Shown here piece after piece: positions 2,067 through 41,064 of a stretch of DNA of 45,377 nt; position 1 is the stretch's first letter, and each line of letters starts with the position of its first letter. The position numbers and the translations under genes were made by a program. The notes below the pieces were generated by a model. It was not told where the DNA came from, did no database searches, and saw only the letters and a program-made list of their open reading frames with translations. Source of the DNA: Escherichia virus TH13; sequence record MT446391.1, one strand, 5' to 3'.

Positions 2067-3587
2067 ATGACCGTTAACGTTGACAACCAGCACCCCCTCT
2101 ATGCGCGCATCGCGCCAGAGTGGAAAATGATCCGGGATTGTGTAGCAGGGGAGCGCGCTGTGAAGGCGTGCGGCCCTTTGTACCTGCCACATCCTGCCAG
2201 CGGCGACAATACTGACCCGAAATCACGGGCGCGGTATAAGGCGTATAAGCAACGCGCTGTATTCCTGAACGCCACCGCCCGCACACTTAACGCGCTGTTA
2301 GGCGTTGCCTTTGCTAAACCGGTAAGTCTCGACCTTTCCGGGGCGATGGCGGACCTTATTGACGACGTAGACGGCAGTGGTATGCCGCTGCCGCAACTCC
2401 TGCGCGGTGCTATGTCTGAAGTTCTGCAATCAGGTCGTGCGGGCTTTATGGTGGACTACGATCGCCAGGCGCATTTTGATGAACTGGGTAACGTAGTACC
2501 GCAGACAGCCGCTGAGATGGCGTCACACCGCCCGCTTATCCGCCTGTACACGGCAGAACAGATCATCAACTGGCGGCAGACCCACGGAGCCGATACGCTG
2601 ATTGTGCTGAAGGAGACGGACGAAATCAGCACCGAAGACCCGGACGACTTCGCAAACCACGAAGTAACAATCTGGACTGAATTGCGCATGATTAACGGTG
2701 CAGCACACGCCCGCCGCTGGTACTACAACGCCGACACGTCCGAGGTGCAAATGGACTTGCCGCGCGGATTCACCCGCACCGACCTGGTGCCGCTGGTGGA
2801 TGCTACCGGTAAGGCACTGACACAACTTCCGTTTTGCTGGTGTGGCGCGGTGGACAACAACGCAACGCCAGACGCCGCTCCGCTGGCAGATATCGCGTCC
2901 ATCAACATTAAGCACTACAACGCCGAAGCGGACGTCGCCGAGATCGCGCACATCGTGGGCCAACCTACCCTGGTTGCGACGGGCTTGACTCAATCATGGG
3001 CGGACAAGAACCTGAAGGGAGGCATTGCCCTCGGTGCGACTAAGGGCGTTATCCTGGGCCAGAACATGGACGCTAAACTGATCCAGGCGGAGGAGCGCAA
3101 CTTGTCGGTTGCACTGTGTGAGCGTCGCGAGTTGCAAATGGCTAAACTTGGCGCAGCCCTGGTTGAGAAGGGGACCGCACCTAAGACGGCAACCGAGGCG
3201 GCCTACGATGCGCAGACTGATAACAGTATCCTGTCGCTTATTGCCGGTAACGTTGAGAAGGCTTTCAACCGTGCGCTGCAAATCGTGCAGCTATTCACGG
3301 GCGACACCGCCGACCAGCGCGTAACGCTGAACAAGTTCTACACTGAAATCACGGTTGATGCGCAGCTTATGACCGCGATGATGTCGGGTGTGCAGACTGG
3401 TACGGTCCGACTTGCTGACTTCATCAAGTGGATGATGGCCCAGGGCGTCATTGACGACTCGCAAACCGTCGAGCAGGTGGAAGACGAATTGCGAAATCAG
3501 AATCCATTGCCTCAAATGTCCCCTGATGCGGTAGAATCTACCGAAGAAGACCCGGACAAGGTAGCGGACAATGGCGAGAACGATTAA
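2067..3587 (+). CDS. portal protein
   Basis: 506 aa ORF with good RBS (aaggaaac) directly after the terminase; canonical position and size. Confidence 0.75.
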   Translation: MTVNVDNQHPLYARIAPEWKMIRDCVAGERAVKACGPLYLPHPASGDNTDPKSRARYKAYKQRAVFLNATARTLNALLGVAFAKPVSLDLSGAMADLIDDVDGSGMPLPQLLRGAMSEVLQSGRAGFMVDYDRQAHFDELGNVVPQTAAEMASHRPLIRLYTAEQIINWRQTHGADTLIVLKETDEISTEDPDDFANHEVTIWTELRMINGAAHARRWYYNADTSEVQMDLPRGFTRTDLVPLVDATGKALTQLPFCWCGAVDNNATPDAAPLADIASINIKHYNAEADVAEIAHIVGQPTLVATGLTQSWADKNLKGGIALGATKGVILGQNMDAKLIQAEERNLSVALCERRELQMAKLGAALVEKGTAPKTATEAAYDAQTDNSILSLIAGNVEKAFNRALQIVQLFTGDTADQRVTLNKFYTEITVDAQLMTAMMSGVQTGTVRLADFIKWMMAQGVIDDSQTVEQVEDELRNQNPLPQMSPDAVESTEEDPDKVADNGEND

Positions 3588-4674
3588 TCAACATATGGCG
3601 GATCGCATGATCCGTCGTCACATCTTCACCCAGCGCCTGAGCAATGACCAGGCGCGGCGGGTGCTGGCTATGTGGGAGAAGTTCCGGCCCACGTTACTGG
3701 GTAAGCTGACCGAGTTACTTGATGGCAAAAAGTCCATGAGCAACAAGGCACTTACCACACTATTAACGCAACTCGACAAGACCGTCAAAACGGAACTGCG
3801 CGCCGAGTTTAAAGTGCTGGCGGAGAGCCTTCGGGAGTTCGCCGACACCGAGGCTGATTATCTCGCTGACACACTAACGGCAGCGATCCAGCCCGCGGTC
3901 GCCGTGCCAGCGGTCGAAGTAGTGGGCGTTGTTACCGGCGCGCAGATTGCAGCGACGGCAATGAAAAACCAGTTCCAGGGTAACACCATGATGCAATGGC
4001 CTGACTCACTTTCCGAGTGGACCAGGACGCAGATCGGCAATCAGGTGCGCGCTGGATTCATCCAGGGCAAGCCGACTATGGAAATTATTGCGGACGTGAG
4101 GCGCGCGCTCGGCGGTCGAAGTGCGCAAGCTATCTCAAGCGTTGTTAAGTCCGCGGTCAACCACTATGCGGCGACCGCCCGCGAACTAATGGTAAAAGCA
4201 AATGACGATATTCTCGAAGGTCGCCAATGGTTGGCTACATTGGACACGCATACTTCTCCCATGTGCCAGCTACGCGATCGCCTGTTTTATCCGGTTGATG
4301 TTACTCCCGACACCAAAGGAAAGCGCGGCGGGAAAGTGGTGGCGGGGTCACAATATGGCGCTGGTCCGGGCAAGCTGCATTATTGCTGCCGTTCGACGGA
4401 GACGTGGAAAGTCAAAGGTATGGAAGATTGGCCCAGTGGTAAGCGTCCGGCACTGAAGGCTGACGCGGGCAGATTGCTGAGCGAGCAGGTCGACGCGCAG
4501 ACTGATTTCTTCTCATGGGTGCAGCGCCAGCCGCGCCATATTCTGGAAGAATTATACGGAGTGCAACGCGCCGACCAGATTATGCGCGGAGTGAAAGTGC
4601 CGAAGATGTTCACCGATTCCGGCGAACTAATGACTATCGCACAGCTTAAAAACCGGGGGTTATGGCGTGATTAA
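3571..4674 (+). CDS. head morphogenesis / minor capsid protein
   Basis: 367 aa ORF overlapping portal stop; canonical position after portal. Confidence 0.6.
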   Translation: MARTINQHMADRMIRRHIFTQRLSNDQARRVLAMWEKFRPTLLGKLTELLDGKKSMSNKALTTLLTQLDKTVKTELRAEFKVLAESLREFADTEADYLADTLTAAIQPAVAVPAVEVVGVVTGAQIAATAMKNQFQGNTMMQWPDSLSEWTRTQIGNQVRAGFIQGKPTMEIIADVRRALGGRSAQAISSVVKSAVNHYAATARELMVKANDDILEGRQWLATLDTHTSPMCQLRDRLFYPVDVTPDTKGKRGGKVVAGSQYGAGPGKLHYCCRSTETWKVKGMEDWPSGKRPALKADAGRLLSEQVDAQTDFFSWVQRQPRHILEELYGVQRADQIMRGVKVPKMFTDSGELMTIAQLKNRGLWRD

Positions 4675-4996
4675 ATATGCAGCGATTGGACTGGTTATCG
4701 GTCTGGCGGTAGGATTCTGGCTAGGCGACTCCTATCGTACTGGCGTAGTGGCGGAGGCGGCGCAAGAAGCGCAAGCCCAAGCCCAACGGCAGCAAACTAA
4801 AGTTGTTGAGCGCTCCGTGCAGGCCGAACAGGCCCGCGACGTAGAATACCGGACTATAACGAAAGAGGTTGTTAAATATGTTACGCGCCCTAACCGCCCT
4901 GATTGTAGTTTTGATGCTGAGCGCGTGCGGATCAAGCAACGTGCCGTTGATGCCGCTAACGGAGTCGGCACTGCGACCGCCGTGCAAGTTCGATAG
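4667..4996 (+). CDS. i-spanin (Rz-like inner membrane spanin)
   Basis: GTG start with GGGGG RBS; N-terminal TM helix (AAIGLVIGLAVGFWL) then Q/A/E/R-rich coiled-coil periplasmic region; contains the o-spanin gene in the +1 frame. Confidence 0.75.
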   Translation: MIKYAAIGLVIGLAVGFWLGDSYRTGVVAEAAQEAQAQAQRQQTKVVERSVQAEQARDVEYRTITKEVVKYVTRPNRPDCSFDAERVRIKQRAVDAANGVGTATAVQVR

Positions 4997-5108
4997 CCCG
5001 TCCGCAGACCCCGACGAAGACTTGCTGGTCGATGTTAAGAATATGGAATGTGGTGCGAAGCTGAGGGCGCAAGTGCTGGAGTTGCAGAAAATAATTCGGG
5101 GGCCGTGA
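4878..5108 (+). CDS. o-spanin (Rz1-like outer membrane lipoprotein)
   Basis: signal peptide with lipobox LSAC (LIVVLMLSAC GSS), short proline-rich mature region; starts inside the i-spanin gene and extends past it; ORF track start at TTG 4869, ATG with RBS at 4878. Confidence 0.75.
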   Translation: MLRALTALIVVLMLSACGSSNVPLMPLTESALRPPCKFDSPSADPDEDLLVDVKNMECGAKLRAQVLELQKIIRGP

Positions 5109-5121
5109 TGGCCCCCTTTTT
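5098..5121. terminator. bidirectional terminator between spanin genes and reverse-strand moron
   Basis: gggggcc-gtgat-ggccccc hairpin followed by T5; sits between convergent genes. Confidence 0.6.
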
Positions 5122-5122
5122 G

Positions 5123-5887
5123 TTAGCGCGGAATACCGCAAATCTCGTTTAGCGTCTTCACGTCCAGCGCCACCGCCGTGGACTTCGGCTTATCCGGGTA
5201 TGGAATAAACTGTTCAACTTCAGGCCACGCCTTGATCAGTTTCTTATCGGTATTGTGCATATCCAGTACGCCGGTAACTGTTAGTTTGAACGCGTCATAC
5301 TTCGCACGCAATTCGCGGCGGGCCTTGTCGTTGCGATCTAGGCGCTTGCAGAAGTCGTGGTCTGCCGGGTAGTCTACGCGACCGCGCGGAAGATATATCG
5401 GCAGCGATTTTCCGTCCTCGTCCACTTCGCACACTGAAGCCAGCATAACTTCCTCGTACCCCGGTACGATATCACCGAGATCGGGAGATAGCTTGTTCAA
5501 ATATTTCTCTTCCCAGTATCCGCGGTGCAGGCGGTATCGGTATCCATCGCCGCTCAATGATACGGTGCGAACATTACCGCCTGCGTTGATATCGAATCCG
5601 GCGCTATAAACGCTGCCGATGCCTTTTGGCCGGTCGGAGTTATAGCTATACGTCGCCTTGTCGGTGTAAACGCTAACGCCATACATCTGCGACTGGTTAT
5701 CGCGGATTTCTGCGATATATGCGCGTAACTCGGCGAACGTGCGAATGCCTTCCGGCATACAGTCCAGCGTAATGGCGTACGCCAAGTCGCGAGAGTCCAT
5801 CATGATGGATTTTGCTTCGGTCGCGATTTCATGGTCGCGCAGGATGTTAGCCAGAATCTTGTTTTTAACGTCTTTTGTCAGTCTCAT
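5123..5887 (-). CDS. hypothetical protein (reverse-oriented moron in head module)
   Basis: 254 aa from internal ATG (MRLTKDVKNK...) of the 403-aa track ORF; upstream extension would overlap the scaffold gene; no recognisable motifs. Confidence 0.6.
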   Translation of the reverse strand: MRLTKDVKNKILANILRDHEIATEAKSIMMDSRDLAYAITLDCMPEGIRTFAELRAYIAEIRDNQSQMYGVSVYTDKATYSYNSDRPKGIGSVYSAGFDINAGGNVRTVSLSGDGYRYRLHRGYWEEKYLNKLSPDLGDIVPGYEEVMLASVCEVDEDGKSLPIYLPRGRVDYPADHDFCKRLDRNDKARRELRAKYDAFKLTVTGVLDMHNTDKKLIKAWPEVEQFIPYPDKPKSTAVALDVKTLNEICGIPR

Positions 5888-5908
5888 TTTTGCGTCCTCG
5901 TTGTTGGT

Positions 5909-5931
5909 GTGCAACCAATATATGCAACCAA
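5909..5931. promoter_or_regulatory. paired TGCAACCAAT motifs in divergent control region
   Basis: two direct copies of tgcaaccaat 13 bp apart between divergent genes 5123..5887 and the scaffold gene; same motif recurs about 20 times in the window. Confidence 0.45.
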
Positions 5932-6035
5932 TACGCGGATTGCAAGCGAATTTTGCGATTATTTTTATCACTGATAATATTAGAGGCGTGAAGTCGAGCG
6001 GGTGGCCCGCTCTGCCACAATCCCAGGGGGATAGC

Positions 6036-6737
6036 ATGAAACTTACTAAAGCAGAATATGACGCGTTGCCGGAAGGTATGAAGGCGCTTTTTGTTGCCGA
6101 TGGTGACGGGTATAAATCAACGTTCATGACCGCAGAAGAAGTACAGGCGGAGATCAAGGGTCTGAAAGACAACAACGCGAAGCTGGTGAGCGAGAAGAAA
6201 GCAGAAGCTGAACGTCGCGCCGAAGCCGAGCGCCTTGCGAAAGAGAAAGAGGAAGCCGCCGCGCGCAAAAATGGCGACCTCGAAGCGATCGACAAGTCTT
6301 GGAAAGATAAGTTTGCGAAACACGAAGCAGACACATCGGGAAAAATCGAAGCCTATCGCAAGCAGATCCACGATCTAACCATCGGCAGCGCTGCCAAAGA
6401 CCTGGCGTCGAAGCTGTTCGGTAAGAATGCGGGCATCATGCAACGCCACGTAATGGACCGCCTGACGCTGGAAGACGGCGAAGACGGCAGCTTGAAAGTG
6501 CGTGTCTTGCAGGATGGCAAACCGTCCGCGCTGACTATGGAAGAGCTTGAAAAAGAGTTCCGTAATAACGCCGATTTCGCATCCGTCCTGGCCGGCACGC
6601 CAGCAGGAGGCGCTCCTAGCAAACCGACGCAGGTTGTCGAAGATGTGAAGTCTAAAATTACGATGGGCCATAGCTTCGGTATCACCGATCTCACCAAACA
6701 GGCCGGGGATATCATCGCTAAAATGGGCGACGAGTAA
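6036..6737 (+). CDS. scaffolding protein (putative)
   Basis: 233 aa from ATG with RBS caggggga; charged, coiled-coil-like (EAERRAEAERLAKEKEEAAARK); directly upstream of major capsid gene. Confidence 0.6.
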   Translation: MKLTKAEYDALPEGMKALFVADGDGYKSTFMTAEEVQAEIKGLKDNNAKLVSEKKAEAERRAEAERLAKEKEEAAARKNGDLEAIDKSWKDKFAKHEADTSGKIEAYRKQIHDLTIGSAAKDLASKLFGKNAGIMQRHVMDRLTLEDGEDGSLKVRVLQDGKPSALTMEELEKEFRNNADFASVLAGTPAGGAPSKPTQVVEDVKSKITMGHSFGITDLTKQAGDIIAKMGDE

Positions 6738-6834
6738 GCGGATTGCCCGCGAAAGCGGGCAATTTTGCGAGCGCGTAAAACTAAGGTAACATTAATGCCA
6801 CTGGGCGAATGCTCACAACTCAAAGGATTTCGAT

Positions 6835-7935
6835 ATGTCTTTAACAGTGTTCCAGCGTAAACTCGTTACCGCGGTTACGCAAATGATCCCCGACAACCTG
6901 AACGTTTTCAACGCCGCCGCCAATGGCGCTGTTGTTCTCGGTACTGGTGAAGTGCTGAAGGACGTTATTGAGAAAATGTCCGTAGGCTTGATCGCCAACC
7001 TCGTTACCGACCGTAACGCCTACGCCCCCGTCGGCACTCCGGCGACCGCGAAAGTGCTGGCGCGTATGCTAACCAACTCGGTTAACCTTTCCGCAAAAGT
7101 GGGTCCGGTAGCAATCACTAAGGCTATGATGGCTAAGATCGAAACCAACGTTAACAGCGTTGCGGCTGAGATTGCGGCACAGGCTACTCAAGCGATTATG
7201 CTGCACTACCTGAAAGCTGGTATCGGCGCAAGTAAAGCGGCGATCGAAAGCAACGCAGCGGCAAAATACACCCAACCGGCGCGCGTTGACGGCGTTGGCG
7301 GTCGTACCTTCCCGACCCTGGCAGACTTCCCGCTGGCGGCTTCTAAGTTCGGCGATCAGGCGTCTTTGATTAAGTCTTGGTTTATGGACGGCGTTACCTG
7401 GGCAAACTTCATTGCGTACCAGGCACTCCCTTCCGCTGAACAGGTATTCGCAATTGGCGATCTCCAGGTAATGGGTGATGGCCTGGGCCGTCGCTTCATT
7501 ATCTCCGATGCCGCTGCCGATGCTATGGGGGCGGGTAACATGCTGGGTCTGGTCCCTGGCGCGGTTGCAGTTACCACCAACGGCCTCGATATGCTGGCGC
7601 AGGAGAAAGGCGGTAACGAGAACATCGAGCGCTGGTGGCAGGGCGAGTTCGACTTCAACGTGGCTGTTAAAGGCTACCGTCTGAAGGCGTCCGCTCGAAC
7701 CCCGATCGAAGGTGTGCGCTCGTTCAAACTGGACGATATTACCACTTCCGCTAACTGGGAACTGGACCAGGGCCAGGTAGACAACGCACCGGCAACCGTT
7801 CAGGATGTTGGCGCTGTGGGTGATGGCGATACTAAAGGTCGTCGTAAGACCCAGGCCGCACAGGCAGTGCCTACCCGTCACATCAAGGAAACCGCGGGCG
7901 TACTGGTTACGCTGACGGCTACCACCGCGTCTTAA
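6835..7935 (+). CDS. major capsid protein
   Basis: 366 aa, RBS aaagga, follows scaffold gene and is followed by a strong terminator; canonical position. Confidence 0.7.
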   Translation: MSLTVFQRKLVTAVTQMIPDNLNVFNAAANGAVVLGTGEVLKDVIEKMSVGLIANLVTDRNAYAPVGTPATAKVLARMLTNSVNLSAKVGPVAITKAMMAKIETNVNSVAAEIAAQATQAIMLHYLKAGIGASKAAIESNAAAKYTQPARVDGVGGRTFPTLADFPLAASKFGDQASLIKSWFMDGVTWANFIAYQALPSAEQVFAIGDLQVMGDGLGRRFIISDAAADAMGAGNMLGLVPGAVAVTTNGLDMLAQEKGGNENIERWWQGEFDFNVAVKGYRLKASARTPIEGVRSFKLDDITTSANWELDQGQVDNAPATVQDVGAVGDGDTKGRRKTQAAQAVPTRHIKETAGVLVTLTATTAS

Positions 7936-7954
7936 TCGACGCACATCCCAAAGG

Positions 7955-7978
7955 GGCGGGCTTATGCCCGCCTTTTTT
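7955..7978 (+). terminator. rho-independent terminator after capsid gene
   Basis: ggcggg-cttatg-cccgcc hairpin followed by T6. Confidence 0.65.
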
Positions 7979-7993
7979 ATAGGAGTGAATACA

Positions 7994-8494
7994 ATGTATG
8001 GCGACCCGCAAACCTTTGTCGATTATGCCACTGCGCGAGGCGTTGAAATTACGCTGGGCGATGCAACGCGACACATTACCATCGTTAATGACTTCCTTAA
8101 CGGCATCAACTGGATCGGCGAACAGGCGGACCAGACAGGAATAGACGCATGGCCCCGCATCAATTACCCATCGGACGGGAAGCCGGTGCGCGACACGCTA
8201 ACCGAAGCCGTGGCGGTAGTGCCTGTCGGGCAAATCGTAGACTTTGCATCAATCCCCGTTGCCGTTGAGCAAGCTGTTTACCGGCTGGCGCTGTTGGTGG
8301 CGGACGAGATCGATATTTCTCCTGTCGGCGATGGTAAAGAGACTATTCGCGAAACGGTCGGCCCGATCACGATGGAATATGACCCGGCGTCGATTGGTAG
8401 CGGGGTGTCGTTCCCGTGGTGGGATGGCTTGTTAGGCCACTGGGTTGATTCAGGCGGCAACGCCGCAGGCAATTTCGACGTATACAGGGGGTGA
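7994..8494 (+). CDS. hypothetical head-tail joining region protein
   Basis: 166 aa from ATG with RBS aggagtg (track ORF starts upstream at 7964). Confidence 0.5.
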   Translation: MYGDPQTFVDYATARGVEITLGDATRHITIVNDFLNGINWIGEQADQTGIDAWPRINYPSDGKPVRDTLTEAVAVVPVGQIVDFASIPVAVEQAVYRLALLVADEIDISPVGDGKETIRETVGPITMEYDPASIGSGVSFPWWDGLLGHWVDSGGNAAGNFDVYRG

Positions 8495-20747: not shown

Positions 20748-20767
20748 GGGGCCATATGGCCCCTTTT
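20748..20767. terminator. terminator after gpJ-like gene (possibly bidirectional)
   Basis: ggggcc-atat-ggcccc hairpin followed by T4; convergent gene on the minus strand ends inside the T-run. Confidence 0.55.
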
Positions 20768-21731
20768 AATATATGTTAGGAATGACGAGTAACGGGGTTG
20801 GTACTGCAATATTTTTACCCGGCATTTGGAATTGTTGCCGTGAGTAGTTGCCAATGACGCGGTTTTTAGCTATGCGCACATTATTGCCCGCCATTCGTAT
20901 ACCGTTCATGCGTACGTGGTTATAGCCGCCGTTGTTCTCAATAAGCGCGCCGGTGTATGAAAGCTGGACCAGGCTGTTACCGATGTACTGATCGCCGCCG
21001 CCGATATTAATAAGGCGGTCATAAACAAACGGCTTATTCACAGTTGAGAACGTGACCTGACCCTGGTTGTTTGTCATGGTGATGCCGTTCCCAGGGGTGG
21101 GCGGCGTATTGTTGAATATAACCAAGTCCATTTCAACAGCCGCGCCTACGTCGTCAATCCCACCATAGGATGCATTACGGACGATAATACTTCCGCCATC
21201 GAAGCCGACAGACACGTTTCCGTCGTCCCAGCGCGCGAACGGAACGCCGCTTACTGGTAACGGCATACTTCCGTTCACCCACACGCGCTGCGCATATTGG
21301 CAGGTCATCAGCCTGGATACGTTCGATATCGCGGTGAAGTCCGTCGAGTTCGCCACCAGTAAGCCCGCGTTGCGCGACCCCACCGGCAGCACTTCCATAA
21401 TCACCCCGCCCCATGAGGGAAGCCCGCTATATGCGTTATACGCGTCCTCACCGCGCAAGGTGATTCCGCTATCCCCGTTACGCTGTATTGACGTTATGTA
21501 AAACGGATCTGGCAAGACCAGTGTCTGGTCGAAGACTTCCATCACTTCAACGGGACTTGTTAGCACGACGACCAGATCTGACCCCGGCGTTAGCGGAGTG
21601 TTAATAGTTAGCGTCTTATCAGACTGGCAGCGCTGATAGAATGATGTACAGAATGACGGCGCGCGAAGTCCTGCGGTAATCTCCATGCGCGGCCTTCCGT
21701 CGTTGTAGTCGATAAGTATCCCAGCGCCCAT
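20766..21731 (-). CDS. hypothetical beta-rich (beta-helix-like) protein, reverse-oriented moron
   Basis: 321 aa from ATG 3 nt after the lipoprotein stop (track ORF from GTG 21740); Gly/Asn/Ser/Thr-rich repetitive beta-strand-like segments (NNGGYNHVRMNGIRMAGNNVRIAKNRVIGN); no signal peptide. Confidence 0.55.
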   Translation of the reverse strand: MGAGILIDYNDGRPRMEITAGLRAPSFCTSFYQRCQSDKTLTINTPLTPGSDLVVVLTSPVEVMEVFDQTLVLPDPFYITSIQRNGDSGITLRGEDAYNAYSGLPSWGGVIMEVLPVGSRNAGLLVANSTDFTAISNVSRLMTCQYAQRVWVNGSMPLPVSGVPFARWDDGNVSVGFDGGSIIVRNASYGGIDDVGAAVEMDLVIFNNTPPTPGNGITMTNNQGQVTFSTVNKPFVYDRLINIGGGDQYIGNSLVQLSYTGALIENNGGYNHVRMNGIRMAGNNVRIAKNRVIGNYSRQQFQMPGKNIAVPTPLLVIPNIY

Positions 21732-21733
21732 TA

Positions 21734-21955
21734 TTACCACTCCCGTGATTTAACTGATACCGTACCAGAGAAGTTGCCGTCACTATCGGCAGACAGACCA
21801 GTGAAGCGCATATCCACATCTCCGGCTGGCACTTTCTTCCCGTCGACGTAGCGCAACATGCAGCTACCGTAGGCAACCGTAATGCAATCGCCGTTGTTGC
21901 GTTCTACAGCACAACCGGACAACAGAACCGCACAAATCATAATTAAAGTTTTCAT
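21734..21955 (-). CDS. small lipoprotein (candidate receptor-blocking superinfection exclusion lipoprotein)
   Basis: 73 aa from ATG with strong RBS aggaga; signal peptide MKTLIMICAVLLSGC with lipobox LSGC; divergent from tail fiber gene; function inferred by analogy to Cor/Llp-type lipoproteins. Confidence 0.55.
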   Translation of the reverse strand: MKTLIMICAVLLSGCAVERNNGDCITVAYGSCMLRYVDGKKVPAGDVDMRFTGLSADSDGNFSGTVSVKSREW

Positions 21956-29937: not shown

Positions 29938-29968
29938 TTCTAAAATCCTCGATAGTGCTAACCGGCAC

Positions 29969-29997
29969 ACTATACCGCTACGCGACCAATTCAGCAA
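29969..29997 (-). promoter_or_regulatory. sigma70-like promoter (TTGCTG-N17-TATAGT) at left edge of tandem duplication; second copy at about 30556..30584
   Basis: -35 overlaps an AGCAACCAAT motif; -10 TATAGT; coordinates approximate. Confidence 0.4.
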
Positions 29998-30256
29998 CCA
30001 ATAAATCACAGTCGGCTATGTTGTCGATAACGCGAACGTCCGCACCGCGGCGGGCCATTCGTTCATGTTCACGTACCTGGTGCGGCTTCGGTTTCCCACC
30101 TGGGCGCTTCACTTCGACGAACACTATTTTGCCGTTGATGATAATAATCAGGTCGGGCGCACCTGCGCGCCCCTCCCATGCCAGTTTTCGGCAGAATCCC
30201 CCAACGGCTTTAACCAGCTTCATCAGGTGACTTTGTATCTTGCCTTCTGGTGTCAT
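29978..30256 (-). CDS. VRR-NUC domain nuclease, copy 1
   Basis: 92 aa; ...FVEVKRPGGKPKPHQ... with conserved D/E-x-K catalytic core typical of VRR-NUC. Confidence 0.8.
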   Translation of the reverse strand: MTPEGKIQSHLMKLVKAVGGFCRKLAWEGRAGAPDLIIIINGKIVFVEVKRPGGKPKPHQVREHERMARRGADVRVIDNIADCDLLVAELVA

Positions 30257-30444
30257 TTGGTCTGCAACTCCACGTTACGCAGACGAAGGTCTACCGGTAT
30301 ATCCGACCGGCCGGTTAGTGCCAGCGCCAGGTTTTCAGGCGTGACGAGTGCCGTAATGGTCTTGCCACGTTCCAGTCTAATGACGATTCGAATCTCGTCA
30401 TTGTCCGTCGCGCCAGCGCGCATAATGCTCATTTCTGCTTTCAT
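30253..30444 (-). CDS. small hypothetical protein, copy 1
   Basis: 63 aa from ATG (MKAEMSIMRAG...) with RBS caggaag; ATGA overlap with VRR-NUC. Confidence 0.45.
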   Translation of the reverse strand: MKAEMSIMRAGATDNDEIRIVIRLERGKTITALVTPENLALALTGRSDIPVDLRLRNVELQTK

Positions 30445-30564
30445 AATCTTACTTCCTGTACCTGTACATAATGTCGCCTTCGGCGGCAAGTGGGAAGCCT
30501 TTCGCCCAAATAGGCAGGTCGCACATCTAAAATCCTCGATAGTGCTAACCGGCACACTATACCG

Positions 30565-30843
30565 CTACGCGACCAATTCAGCAACCAATAAATCACAGTC
30601 GGCTATGTTGTCGATAACGCGAACGTCCGCACCGCGGCGGGCCATTCGTTCATGTTCACGTACCTGGTGCGGCTTCGGTTTCCCACCTGGGCGCTTCACT
30701 TCGACGAACACTATTTTGCCGTTGATGATAATAATCAGGTCGGGCGCACCTGCGCGCCCCTCCCATGCCAGTTTTCGGCAGAATCCCCCAACGGCTTTAA
30801 CCAGCTTCATCAGGTGACTTTGTATCTTGCCTTCTGGTGTCAT
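30565..30843 (-). CDS. VRR-NUC domain nuclease, copy 2
   Basis: identical 92-aa translation to copy 1. Confidence 0.8.
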   Translation of the reverse strand: MTPEGKIQSHLMKLVKAVGGFCRKLAWEGRAGAPDLIIIINGKIVFVEVKRPGGKPKPHQVREHERMARRGADVRVIDNIADCDLLVAELVA

Positions 30844-31031
30844 TTGGTCTGCAACTCCACGTTACGCAGACGAAGGTCTACCGGTATATCCGACCGGCCG
30901 GTTAGTGCCAGCGCCAGGTTTTCAGGCGTGACGAGTGCCGTAATGGTCTTGCCACGTTCCAGTCTAATGACGATTCGAATCTCGTCATTGTCCGTCGCGC
31001 CAGCGCGCATAATGCTCATTTCTGCTTTCAT
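30840..31031 (-). CDS. small hypothetical protein, copy 2
   Basis: identical 63-aa translation; begins 5 nt after DNA polymerase stop. Confidence 0.45.
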   Translation of the reverse strand: MKAEMSIMRAGATDNDEIRIVIRLERGKTITALVTPENLALALTGRSDIPVDLRLRNVELQTK

Positions 31032-36712: not shown

Positions 36713-37231
36713 TTAGTCTTCCAGTTCGAAATAAGTCTCGACGATTTCTTTTAAATCTTTGTGGAAGTCTTCGACGTCGTCGTCTTCCAGCTTGGCGATT
36801 GATTTGATCTCGAACGCTTCCAGCAGGTCGTCAAATTCGTCGTTAGCATCGTCGTCATCGCCACCGGCGATAATCGCGGCGTACTGCTTGATCTCGTCGC
36901 GCATCTCTGCCAGCGGATCGGCATCTTTCTTCCCTTTGCCTTTCGCCGGAGCTTTTTTACCCTTCGCCGGTTTTTCGTCTTCGGCTTCTTCATCGTCGTC
37001 ATCTTCTACGACTTCTTTTTTGGCCTTACCTTTAGCCGGGGATTTTTTAGATTTAGCCGGTTTTTCGTCTTCGGCGTCATCGTCGTCATCTTCGACAACT
37101 TCTTTTTTGGCCTTAGACGGCTTCTTATCTTCCTGTTTACCAACGGCAGCGCCAACGGTTTCATAATGCTTTGCAATGGTTTCCAGTGCTACTACGCCGC
37201 GAGTGATCAGGTTTACGATTTGCTCAAACAT
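36713..37231 (-). CDS. acidic charged-repeat protein, first gene of early arm
   Basis: 172 aa from ATG (MFEQIVNL...) with RBS ggagatatacc; two 30-aa repeats EVVEDDDD-AEDEKPAK-KK-PAKGK-KK and an acidic C-terminal helix; track ORF extends upstream without RBS support. Confidence 0.6.
   Translation of the reverse strand: MFEQIVNLITRGVVALETIAKHYETVGAAVGKQEDKKPSKAKKEVVEDDDDDAEDEKPAKSKKSPAKGKAKKEVVEDDDDEEAEDEKPAKGKKAPAKGKGKKDADPLAEMRDEIKQYAAIIAGGDDDDANDEFDDLLEAFEIKSIAKLEDDDVEDFHKDLKEIVETYFELED
36966..37114 (-). repeat. in-frame coding tandem repeat (90-bp period) in acidic early gene
   Basis: gccggtttttcgtcttcggc...cttcttttttggcctta repeated twice. Confidence 0.6.
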
Positions 37232-37468
37232 GGTATATCTCCGATTGGTTAAGTTTAGGTGTCGGCAGTTAACTTCGTCGCTGGCCTTAACATATTGCCA
37301 GGTTACGCGTTCTCCCGTTCGGGTAGTGGACCTGGTTATATAATCACGGTTGGGAATCCTGACACTTCGATCCGGCCCCTGCGTTGCCCCTCTCCAGTTT
37401 GCGTCCTGCATCCTGTCGACGGAGTGAATGATAGATTGGTTGCAGGATAGGTGTCAACAACTAATTTC

Positions 37469-40238: not shown

Positions 40239-40313
40239 ATTTTGCGCGCATTGGTTGCCGATATGGGAATTCCCATATCGCTAGAAGATTAAATTTTGCG
40301 CGCATTGGTTGCC
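40231..40313. repeat. 29-bp perfect direct repeats flanking a 22-bp perfect palindrome
   Basis: aagattaaattttgcgcgcattggttgcc x2 around cgatatgggaattcccatatcg; third partial copy (tattggttgcc) about 40339; first repeat contains the primase stop codon. Confidence 0.7.
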
Positions 40314-40387
40314 ATTTTGAGTGTTTTTATCTGGTCGTATTGGTTGCCGTGTAGTGTAAATATAGTGAATAGTTATGCAGTTTTATT

Positions 40388-40773: not shown

Positions 40774-41064
40774 ATGAGAGCGTTAATCTGGAATTACACA
40801 ATGGCAGTGGCAAAACCGGTCGAAGCGAGATATACCAACGGCAGAGCACCGTGGGAGCGCCTGGTAGCTCCGACCTGGTTTGCGGTCATGGATGCGACCG
40901 CGGGCATGGAAGACCCCGAGCCGTTGCGCGCGGCTATCAGGGCTTACGCGCTTGCATTTGCCCGTGAACGCCTGGCCTATCGCTTCGGTATTGGCGATAA
41001 GGCAGTGACAAACGTCGCCCGGATTAAAGCCCAGCGCGAACTATTCTCCAAGCTTGCGAAATAA
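40774..41064 (+). CDS. hypothetical protein
   Basis: 96 aa; RBS gagga. Confidence 0.5.
   Translation: MRALIWNYTMAVAKPVEARYTNGRAPWERLVAPTWFAVMDATAGMEDPEPLRAAIRAYALAFARERLAYRFGIGDKAVTNVARIKAQRELFSKLAK

Follow-up and report, generated by a model that had tools for sequence, protein, structure and literature searches.

Nmad5 in the head module of Escherichia virus TH13: by its sequence a copy of a described Dhillonvirus gene, tentatively read as an early-phase adaptor

Introduction

The closest described relative of the gene studied here is nmad5 of the Dhillonviruses PhiSMA8 and PhiSMS22 (Yamashita et al. 2025, PMC11846954). The gene itself lies on the reverse strand among the head genes of Escherichia virus TH13 (sequence record MT446391.1), i.e., at positions 5123-5887 of the 45,377-nucleotide (nt) stretch that was analysed as a whole and that we call the window. 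In PhiSMA8 and PhiSMS22, escape from the bacterial defence Tmn maps to the change K216E in nmad5 (K296E in a longer annotation), and reversion of this change restores Tmn sensitivity (PMC11846954). A phage with nmad5 deleted is viable and stays Tmn-sensitive, which argues that Nmad5 is not a simple trigger of Tmn; cloning of nmad5 failed, the gene being apparently toxic (PMC11846954). The authors name Nmad5 a DNA-modification enzyme, citing Iyer et al. 2013 (PMC11846954). Other candidates from the literature do not coincide with this gene: the anti-Tmn gene is ORF35, elsewhere in the genome, the published SECphi18 immune trigger Ksap1 is a protein of 74 amino acids (aa) encoded elsewhere, the RAZR trigger of SECphi18 is the portal protein, and the knockout library of Ojima et al. 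concerns another phage.

More distant relatives are found in other phage groups. Nmad5 of the M6-like Yuaviruses (SN1_019, LKO4 gp18) also matches PF18757 and shares 38-41% identity with the window protein over the C-terminal third (PMC9476957). It is shorter (~186 aa) and lies among hydroxymethylase, kinase, aGPT-Pplase, radical-SAM and PLP genes, whereas the window gene is without these and its product has an extra ~50-aa insertion. S11a_00016 of the Guernseyvirinae phage VLCpiS11a (28% full-length identity) and the lambdoid mEp235_037 (~33% identity over the C-terminus) are both non-structural and sit beside recombination/replication genes. In these two groups Nmad5 is co-transcribed in an early operon, whereas Dhillonvirus nmad5 stands alone behind its own predicted promoter in the head operon. 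Finally, the same reverse-strand slot, between spanin/MuF and scaffold genes, holds a PHROG3007 gene in SO-1 (gp07, 'possible moron gene product') and in fPoEco01 (gp07). This gene encodes an unrelated protein, adjoins nmad5 in EP23, CHD5UKE2 and the unrelated contig L013, and is absent from the window.

Lambdoid morons, described by Hendrix and colleagues, are extra genes between conserved late genes that have their own promoter and terminator and are dispensable for lytic growth. Dhillonviruses are virulent phages. A sequence-only reading of the window had called the gene a moron, and part of that comparison stands: the placement, the predicted own promoter and terminator and the dispensability are alike. 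What does not fit is that the gene is near-universal in the genus, has an ordinary GC content (52.7% vs 54.4% for the window) and uses a phage-wide control decamer. In addition, no integrase/repressor module is present in the fully annotated relative Bas84, so that prophage expression of nmad5 is not expected.

In the following we argue that the window gene is, judged by its sequence, a copy of the already described Dhillonvirus nmad5. We tentatively read Nmad5 as a non-catalytic binding/adaptor protein of the early replication/recombination phase that would be expressed early from its own promoter, an explanation held with slightly less than even confidence.

Identity and family of the gene

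The 4-kb stretch around nmad5 is 100% identical to Escherichia virus TH11 (MT446389.1), a Dhillonvirus, and 92-97% identical to ~150 other Dhillonvirus records. Phages KS_S9 and SM_S24, from the laboratory behind the nmad5 study, are among the close matches; KS_S9 shows 94% DNA identity over window positions 4000-8000. The gene is the orthologue of PhiSMA8/PhiSMS22 nmad5, at the same locus near the capsid genes, with the same length after start correction and the same lysine at position 216. We see no substantive difference, and the window phage is another isolate. The coding features are as follows.

5123..5887, minus strand: nmad5 coding sequence, 254 aa, ATG at 5887 and TAA at 5125-5123
5240-5242, minus strand: codon of K216, position of the published Tmn-escape change (PMC11846954)

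The 29-kDa product matches the Pfam family Nmad5 (PF18757) end to end (E=1.2e-56, 192.5 bits vs a cutoff of 27), with residues 1-253 aligned to profile positions 1-206 of 206. All 60 of 60 diverse relatives match the Nmad5 hidden Markov model as well, and PHROG 1965, a family of unknown function, is matched with E=3e-60. Full-length homologues occur in ~145 phage records, and a profile search of 1.84 billion representative proteins yielded 378 relatives at E<=1e-3, mostly of ~200 aa. The sequence-only reading had seen no motif it could recognise; given the full-length family match and a gene that is already published, this claim falls.

The family shares an N-terminal helix ((M)RLT..I...I..N), a central Gly-Gly, an Ala-Asp-His motif and the C-terminal signature T..KL...WPE....P......LN...G.P. 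The respective positions L3, N14, G103, G104, A175, D176, T213, L217, W221, P222, E223, P229, L246, N247, G251 and P253 show full or at least 90% conservation, and the window protein has all of them, while only a handful of polar positions are conserved family-wide. K216 aligns with a conserved Lys/Arg within the most conserved motif of the family. Two parts are near-invariant, namely the helix at the N-terminus (MRLT..) and residues 181-254, which make up the C-terminal third (basic with an isoelectric point (pI) of ~9, helical); variation is concentrated in residues ~51-90 and 111-130. The window protein has a single domain, and its extra ~50 residues, at ~115-165, form an insertion common to its closest subfamily. 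Since the middle is variable and the C-terminal third near-invariant, the latter may be a fixed docking module.

Three metagenomic sequences (P0047, P0053, P0055) are deletion derivatives of the slot in which the Nmad5 C-terminus is kept in frame. In P0053, the N-terminus of a 109-aa gene of the slot is fused to the last ~42 Nmad5 residues (from 'TDKKLI'); in P0055, a 16-residue upstream extension and Nmad5 residues 1-42 are fused to the last 14 residues. Such in-frame retention may reflect selection for the C-terminal module by itself.

We consider ATG at 5887 the true start, because the whole Nmad5 family shares the MRLT N-terminus; for the same reason the longer readings of 403 and 334 aa, which run antisense into the scaffold gene, are taken as artefacts. 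An in-frame ATG lies 80 codons upstream, antisense to the scaffold gene, and therefore one published annotation is 80 residues longer, hence the double numbering K216/K296. Several GenBank records over-extend open reading frames (ORFs) across the slot promoter in this manner, antisense to the scaffold gene (L018 2356-3084, L009 2148-3194; the respective window ORF is 5123-6334), which yields a 334-aa 'nmad5' with residue numbers shifted by 80.

Two possible kinships were rejected. The 232-aa ORF at 36713-37411, at the syntenic early-operon position, is no paralogue (BLASTP E=0.68, no Nmad5 match) and belongs to PHROG3127. A relation to Mu Gam/Sipho_Gp157, suggested by one weak Pfam match of one family member, has an hhalign probability of 0.3%. 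PADLOC gave no defence-related match for Nmad5, NCBIfam gave just a noise-level sigma-factor match, and Rfam gave nothing over 4500-6500.

Neighbouring genes, as annotated with PHROGs, are listed below.

3571-4674: head morphogenesis protein
4667-4996: Rz-like spanin
4878-5108: Rz-like spanin
6036-6737: head scaffolding protein
6835-7935: major head protein

ORF calls and these neighbours confirm a 254-aa minus-strand gene between the spanins and the scaffold gene. That it is the only minus-strand interruption of the late operon is true over 1-20740, which is plus-strand throughout except for nmad5, and does not extend to the second reverse cassette at 20766-21955.

Genomic contexts of the family

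We sampled ~10 independent Nmad5 contexts; a neighbourhood search with a narrow alignment gave mostly lambdoid prophages. In VLCpiS11a (Klebsiella, Guernseyvirinae) and contig L012, the gene order is PHROG3127, Nmad5, two small ORFs, DUF2800 exonuclease, Enc34-type single-stranded DNA-binding protein (SSB) and PolA. The window operon running from 37411 down to 31036 has the identical order, minus Nmad5. In lambdoid prophages, the pL operon carries Nmad5 between N/Nun or Ral on one side and cIII on the other, with an ERF/Rad52-type recombinase and an SSB downstream, and in a Providencia prophage it adjoins Ral. In contig L021 it adjoins an Rv2179c-like exonuclease gene, ~2.8 kb upstream of a PolA gene, and in an N4-like Vibrio phage it is found among small early/middle genes. 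Head-gene contexts recur in L013, where Nmad5 is in a reverse-strand cassette with a helix-turn-helix (HTH) gene between capsid and connector genes, and in L020, where it lies between MuF/portal and decoration/capsid genes. Only the Yuavirus context, 1 of ~10, contains modification genes.

From these gene orders, the dominant association of Nmad5 is with early replication/recombination, and Dhillonvirus nmad5 appears to have been displaced from the early operon into a separate unit.

The PHROG3127 gene of the window (36713-37411, minus strand, 232 aa, of unknown function) is the first of the leftward replication operon. It is conserved between Dhillonvirus and Guernseyvirinae (L003 5462-5953), and in the latter it is directly upstream of Nmad5.

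Control region and terminator

We next consider the predicted expression signals of nmad5, which are given here with the elements between nmad5 and its neighbours.

5098..5121, both strands: intrinsic terminator, called in both directions, where the convergent genes Rz1 and nmad5 meet
5895..5899, minus strand: ribosome-binding site GAGGA, 7 nt before the ATG, read from the sequence
5917..5945, minus strand: predicted sigma-70-type promoter of nmad5, -35 TTGCAA (5945-5940), 17-nt spacer, -10 TATATT (5922-5917)
5932-5923 and 5919-5910, minus strand: two ATTGGTTGCA decamers, the first within the spacer of the promoter, the second immediately past the -10
5936..6035, no strand assigned: rest of the divergent intergenic region, near-invariant across the genus

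The terminator hairpin is GGGGGCC-GTGA-TGGCCCCC at 5098-5116, followed by TTTTT to 5121, and has a 7-bp GC stem; its tails are a T-run on the plus strand and GAATTATTTT on the minus strand. It folds at ~-17 kcal/mol in both directions, in line with the bidirectional terminator that had been read from the sequence at this position. The loop contains the stop codon of Rz1, and 6 nt separate the stem from the stop codon of nmad5. Likewise, the motif pair reported for the divergent intergenic region is real: TGCAACCAAT, the plus-strand form and reverse complement of ATTGGTTGCA, occurs in exact copies at 5910-5919 and 5923-5932.

Bas84, SECphi18, Teewinot and Ioannina keep both promoter hexamers (-35 and -10), the decamers and the intergenic region over all its 148 nt. 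In Ioannina this holds even though Nmad5 there is just 61% identical. The slot promoter is kept in nearly every relative compared, JL1 being without one decamer and the -10. With promoter, ribosome-binding site and terminator all predicted and conserved, nmad5 looks like a transcription unit of its own; the independent transcription claimed before thus stands as a prediction.

Within the remaining intergenic region, a palindrome TTATCACTGATAA at 5965-5977 is unique in the genome, and a 7-bp GC hairpin GAGCGGG-TGG-CCCGCTC at 5996-6012 directly precedes the scaffold ribosome-binding site. No plus-strand sigma-70 promoter was detected in the intergenic region, and none of its elements other than the decamer recurs in the genome. 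The late genes must restart or read through at 5936-6035, and this segment probably contains a putative late-gene restart signal.

The ATTGGTTGCA decamer, which includes a -35-like TTGCA, is not confined to nmad5. Allowing at most one mismatch, it has 20 hits in the genome vs 3.2 expected (~six-fold), a number reached by 0 of 100 shuffles. The copies are often paired and intergenic, and lie in control regions of DNA-metabolism and small-gene blocks; among the sites are the following.

27018/27035, 37435, 40250-40339, 40712/40743 and 43834/43857: ATTGGTTGCA sites in DNA-metabolism and small-gene control regions
25354/25366: further ATTGGTTGCA sites
22010: ATTGGTTGCA site ~55 nt upstream of the second reverse cassette

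Furthermore, the leader of the gene at 40774 (plus strand) is near-identical to the nmad5 leader. Number and position of the decamers are conserved in Bas84, SO-1 and Teewinot. SO-1 and Teewinot, both without nmad5, have 17 and 19 hits, respectively, vs 20 in the window, at corresponding intergenic positions. By these counts, the decamer is a genus-wide element that would mark early control regions. Nmad5 is unlikely to be its binder, because SO-1 and Teewinot keep the decamers without the gene.

Variable slot and conservation in relatives

Presence and absence of the gene in related phages, a check suggested along with the moron claim, gave a mixed picture: nmad5 is found at this spot in ~145 of roughly 158 Dhillonvirus records (about nine in ten). 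SO-1, JL1 and Teewinot have lost it wholly or in part, and an empty slot was not observed in any genome. The slot contents observed are:

nmad5 alone: window phage, Bas84, SECphi18
109-aa PHROG24635 gene, then nmad5: ZCEC11 and ~60 records
~170-aa PHROG3007 gene, then nmad5: EP23
109-aa gene, nmad5 and PHROG3007 gene: CHD5UKE2
PHROG3007 gene alone: SO-1
nmad5 remnant of 54 codons: JL1
nmad5 remnant of 38 codons: Teewinot

The natural deletions together with the viable engineered deletion (PMC11846954) make nmad5 dispensable. Judged from these layouts, the site is a variable reverse-strand payload slot, with nmad5 as its usual occupant. Compared with close relatives, Nmad5 is 87-90% identical at the aa level, while TerL, portal, MuF, scaffold and capsid proteins reach 96-100% (MuF 94% in JL1). 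That is, nmad5 evolves faster than its structural neighbours.

The PHROG3007 protein (~170 aa; L015 2398-2910, L016 1556-2074, L017 1557-2072, L013 8618-9160, L106 3965-4486) goes under differing annotations, 'RusA-like resolvase' in some records and 'DNA pol III beta' in others, of which the 'RusA' label looks wrong. It has a weak, sub-threshold match to DNA_pol3_beta_2, the central domain of the beta clamp. Its gene is directly downstream of Nmad5 in the unrelated contig L013 (27-28% identity, E ~1e-13 to 1e-15) and stands alone in the equivalent head-module slot of the Kagunavirus fPoEco01 (gp07). The 109-aa PHROG24635 gene (L017 2934-3263, L008 2632-2961), of unknown function, lies between the slot promoter and nmad5 and has distant homologues in ~155-kb Escherichia and Salmonella phages.

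Predicted structure and the enzyme question

An AlphaFold2 model of Nmad5 was built on 34 sequences, with a predicted local distance difference test score (pLDDT) of 76.6 and a predicted template modelling score of 0.73. In the predicted fold, helices at the N-terminus are followed by a small beta sheet, a single long helix (178-209) and, at the C-terminus, three short helices. Foldseek found no match to the model in the PDB at E<=1e-3, and a sequence search of the PDB found no relative. In the viral structure library BFVD, nearly all matches are named Nmad5/Nmad-domain or are unnamed, the exception at E<=1e-3 being one marginal row labelled DNA polymerase A (E=9.7e-4). The profile and structure homology searches that had been proposed for this gene thus return the Nmad5 family and no solved fold. 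Among the Pfam, PHROG and fold searches there is also no homology to a structural or assembly protein, in agreement with the non-structural nature that had been suggested.

The family name is based on an association with nucleotide/DNA-modification genes, and this association is not found at the window locus: no modification partner genes lie near nmad5, whose neighbours are spanins and head genes. The methyltransferase genes of the window are ordinary (Dam-type and others) and more than 20 kb away. The BASEL study reports Dhillonviruses as restriction-sensitive when compared with the 7-deazaguanine-modified Queuovirinae (PMC8594841). The label 'DNA-modification enzyme' therefore finds no support in Dhillonvirus from fold, neighbours or restriction phenotype.

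Other features of the genome

In Bas84, the genome is organised in a rightward late block (terminase to tail tip), a leftward DNA-metabolism block and a rightward primase-helicase/small-gene/lysis block. The second reverse cassette of the window (20766-21955, minus strand) interrupts the tail genes and encodes a DUF6453 membrane protein (324 aa) and a member of the Phage_lipoprotein family (73 aa). It looks like a superinfection-exclusion or moron-type unit. In addition, an exact direct repeat of at least 300 nt with a spacing of 587 nt (29939-30238 and 30526-30825) corresponds to a tandem duplication of a 92-aa VRR_NUC nuclease gene with a 63-aa ORF (29978-30444 and 30565-31031, minus strand). 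In Bas84 this pair is present only once, and the duplication could be real or an assembly artefact.

Discussion

The explanations considered for Nmad5 rank as follows: adaptor, anti-defence protein, modification factor, decamer-binding regulator and structural protein. For the adaptor, we propose the following course. Host RNA polymerase would transcribe nmad5 leftward from its own sigma-70-type promoter, and transcription would end at the bidirectional hairpin shared with Rz1. The ATTGGTTGCA element of the promoter is common to early DNA-metabolism control regions, and nmad5 would thus follow the early genes in its expression rather than the surrounding head genes; this early class is suggested because the decamer is enriched in early control regions and because the leader at 40774 is near-identical. 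The near-invariant C-terminal module would then be the docking site for a conserved partner, either a nucleic acid or a protein. Within this module the basic residue K216 is conserved, and its reversal to Glu alters the Tmn outcome, while overproduction of nmad5 would be toxic to the host and loss of the whole gene is tolerated without escape (PMC11846954). Escape by K216E and not by deletion fits two readings, i.e., an altered or masked partner that Tmn monitors, or a retargeted inhibitor.

Several points weigh against the adaptor. The pattern of missense escape without deletion escape is explained by a retargeted inhibitor, too, and the docking partner of the C-terminal module is hypothetical. 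The promoter call matches at 9/12 positions, and a single hit of this kind does not exceed what shuffling the region yields, so that its credibility derives from conservation in relatives. The decamer is found in both orientations and may be an operator rather than a mark of a promoter class. We found no Dhillonvirus transcriptome in the literature, and transcript, timing and protein interactions of nmad5 are predictions. Yuavirus Nmad5 lies beside thymidine-hypermodification genes (PMC9476957). Moreover, the model is of moderate quality (pLDDT 76.6, four segments below 50), which makes the absent fold match weak negative evidence. A catalytic site or one for a ligand could be made up by the conserved A175-D176-H177 and G103-G104, and a new fold would escape fold searches; going by the model, Nmad5 could have a new catalytic fold.

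The retargeted inhibitor is part of a broader alternative in which Nmad5 is an anti-defence protein that inhibits a host immune system and K216E retargets or broadens it to neutralise Tmn. The requirement for a specific missense change where deletion gives no escape is gain-of-function behaviour, and small sequence changes also shift the specificity of the genuine anti-Tmn protein (PMC11846954). The variable slot with its own predicted promoter, the faster evolution of nmad5, the Ral neighbour in the Providencia prophage and the equivalent reverse cassette of Bas77, which carries an annotated anti-restriction protein and a methyltransferase, point in the same direction. However, deletion left Tmn sensitivity unchanged, and cloning of the gene was toxic with no defence system present (PMC11846954). 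Neither PADLOC nor any other search gave a defence-related match, and K216 lies in the most conserved motif, whereas a specificity surface shaped by an arms race is expected in a variable region. The genetic tie of the orthologue to Tmn (PMC11846954) does bear out part of the host-interaction, exclusion or anti-defence role that the sequence-only reading had proposed. Wild-type Nmad5 is not known to inhibit any defence system. All in all, we regard an anti-defence protein as rather unlikely. Less credit still goes to a role of Nmad5 in the modification of nucleotides or DNA, be it as enzyme or as obligatory cofactor, with Tmn responding to the modification. This is the reading adopted by the authors of PMC11846954; it draws on the family name and the contextual inference of Iyer et al. 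2013, as cited there, and can point to the thymidine-hypermodification cassette of the M6-like Yuaviruses (PMC9476957) and to the conserved Asp-His and Gly-Gly motifs. Yet the Yuavirus is the only one of the ~10 contexts with modification genes, the window methyltransferase genes are ordinary and far from nmad5, no known enzyme fold was detected, and Dhillonviruses are reported as restriction-sensitive in comparison with the modified Queuovirinae (PMC8594841). Tmn sensing that stays intact after deletion is also hard to square with a signal that depends on Nmad5 (PMC11846954). Taken together, we judge the modification factor quite improbable.

Two alternatives remain. In the first, Nmad5 would control early transcription as a phage regulator by binding to the ATTGGTTGCA decamers, those of its own promoter among them. 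In favour of this are the paired decamers that overlap the nmad5 promoter, the basic, helical C-terminal third and the HTH gene that nmad5 follows in L013. We nevertheless consider it very unlikely: the decamers persist in SO-1 (17) and Teewinot (19) without nmad5, the C-terminal motif stays near-invariant even in phage groups without this operator, and the deletion is viable with no obvious defect (PMC11846954). A role in head assembly or the virion would agree with the location within or beside head genes in three unrelated lineages, i.e., Dhillonvirus, L013 and L020. It is, however, at odds with the opposite strand and the own early-type predicted promoter both here and in L013, with dispensability and natural deletions (PMC11846954), with the early replication or pL operons in which most lineages place the gene, with the missing similarity to any structural protein family and with the non-structural genes that relatives carry in the same head-module slot, such that we give it hardly any credence.

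Returning to the adaptor, a more specific and more daring version can be formulated. Here, Nmad5 would be a widespread early-protein family with a new fold and no modification factor, whose C-terminal module (WPE...LN..G.P) docks onto a component of the replisome or one guarded by immunity; abortive-infection systems such as Tmn would monitor this interaction indirectly, and the slot would be an early payload site in Dhillonvirus and Kagunavirus-like siphoviruses. As a whole we think this version unlikely. A partner of the sliding-clamp type is one candidate, suggested by the adjacency of PHROG3007 in two unrelated lineages.

As a discovery, the gene itself counts for little: the family has been in Pfam for years, and the Dhillonvirus orthologue appeared in a 2025 paper. 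The analysis rather offers a correction, since the spreading label 'DNA modification enzyme' rests on gene context in other phages only. The Tmn puzzle is a mechanistic one, in that a change of a conserved lysine in the most conserved motif gives escape and deletion does not. Handles for it come from the anatomy, namely the early-type promoter, the displacement of the gene from a replication operon, the C-terminal module that stays fixed and the slot, whose content varies and includes a clamp-like partner. To phage engineers, the slot offers an insertion site within the head operon that is natural and tolerated and brings predicted expression signals of its own.

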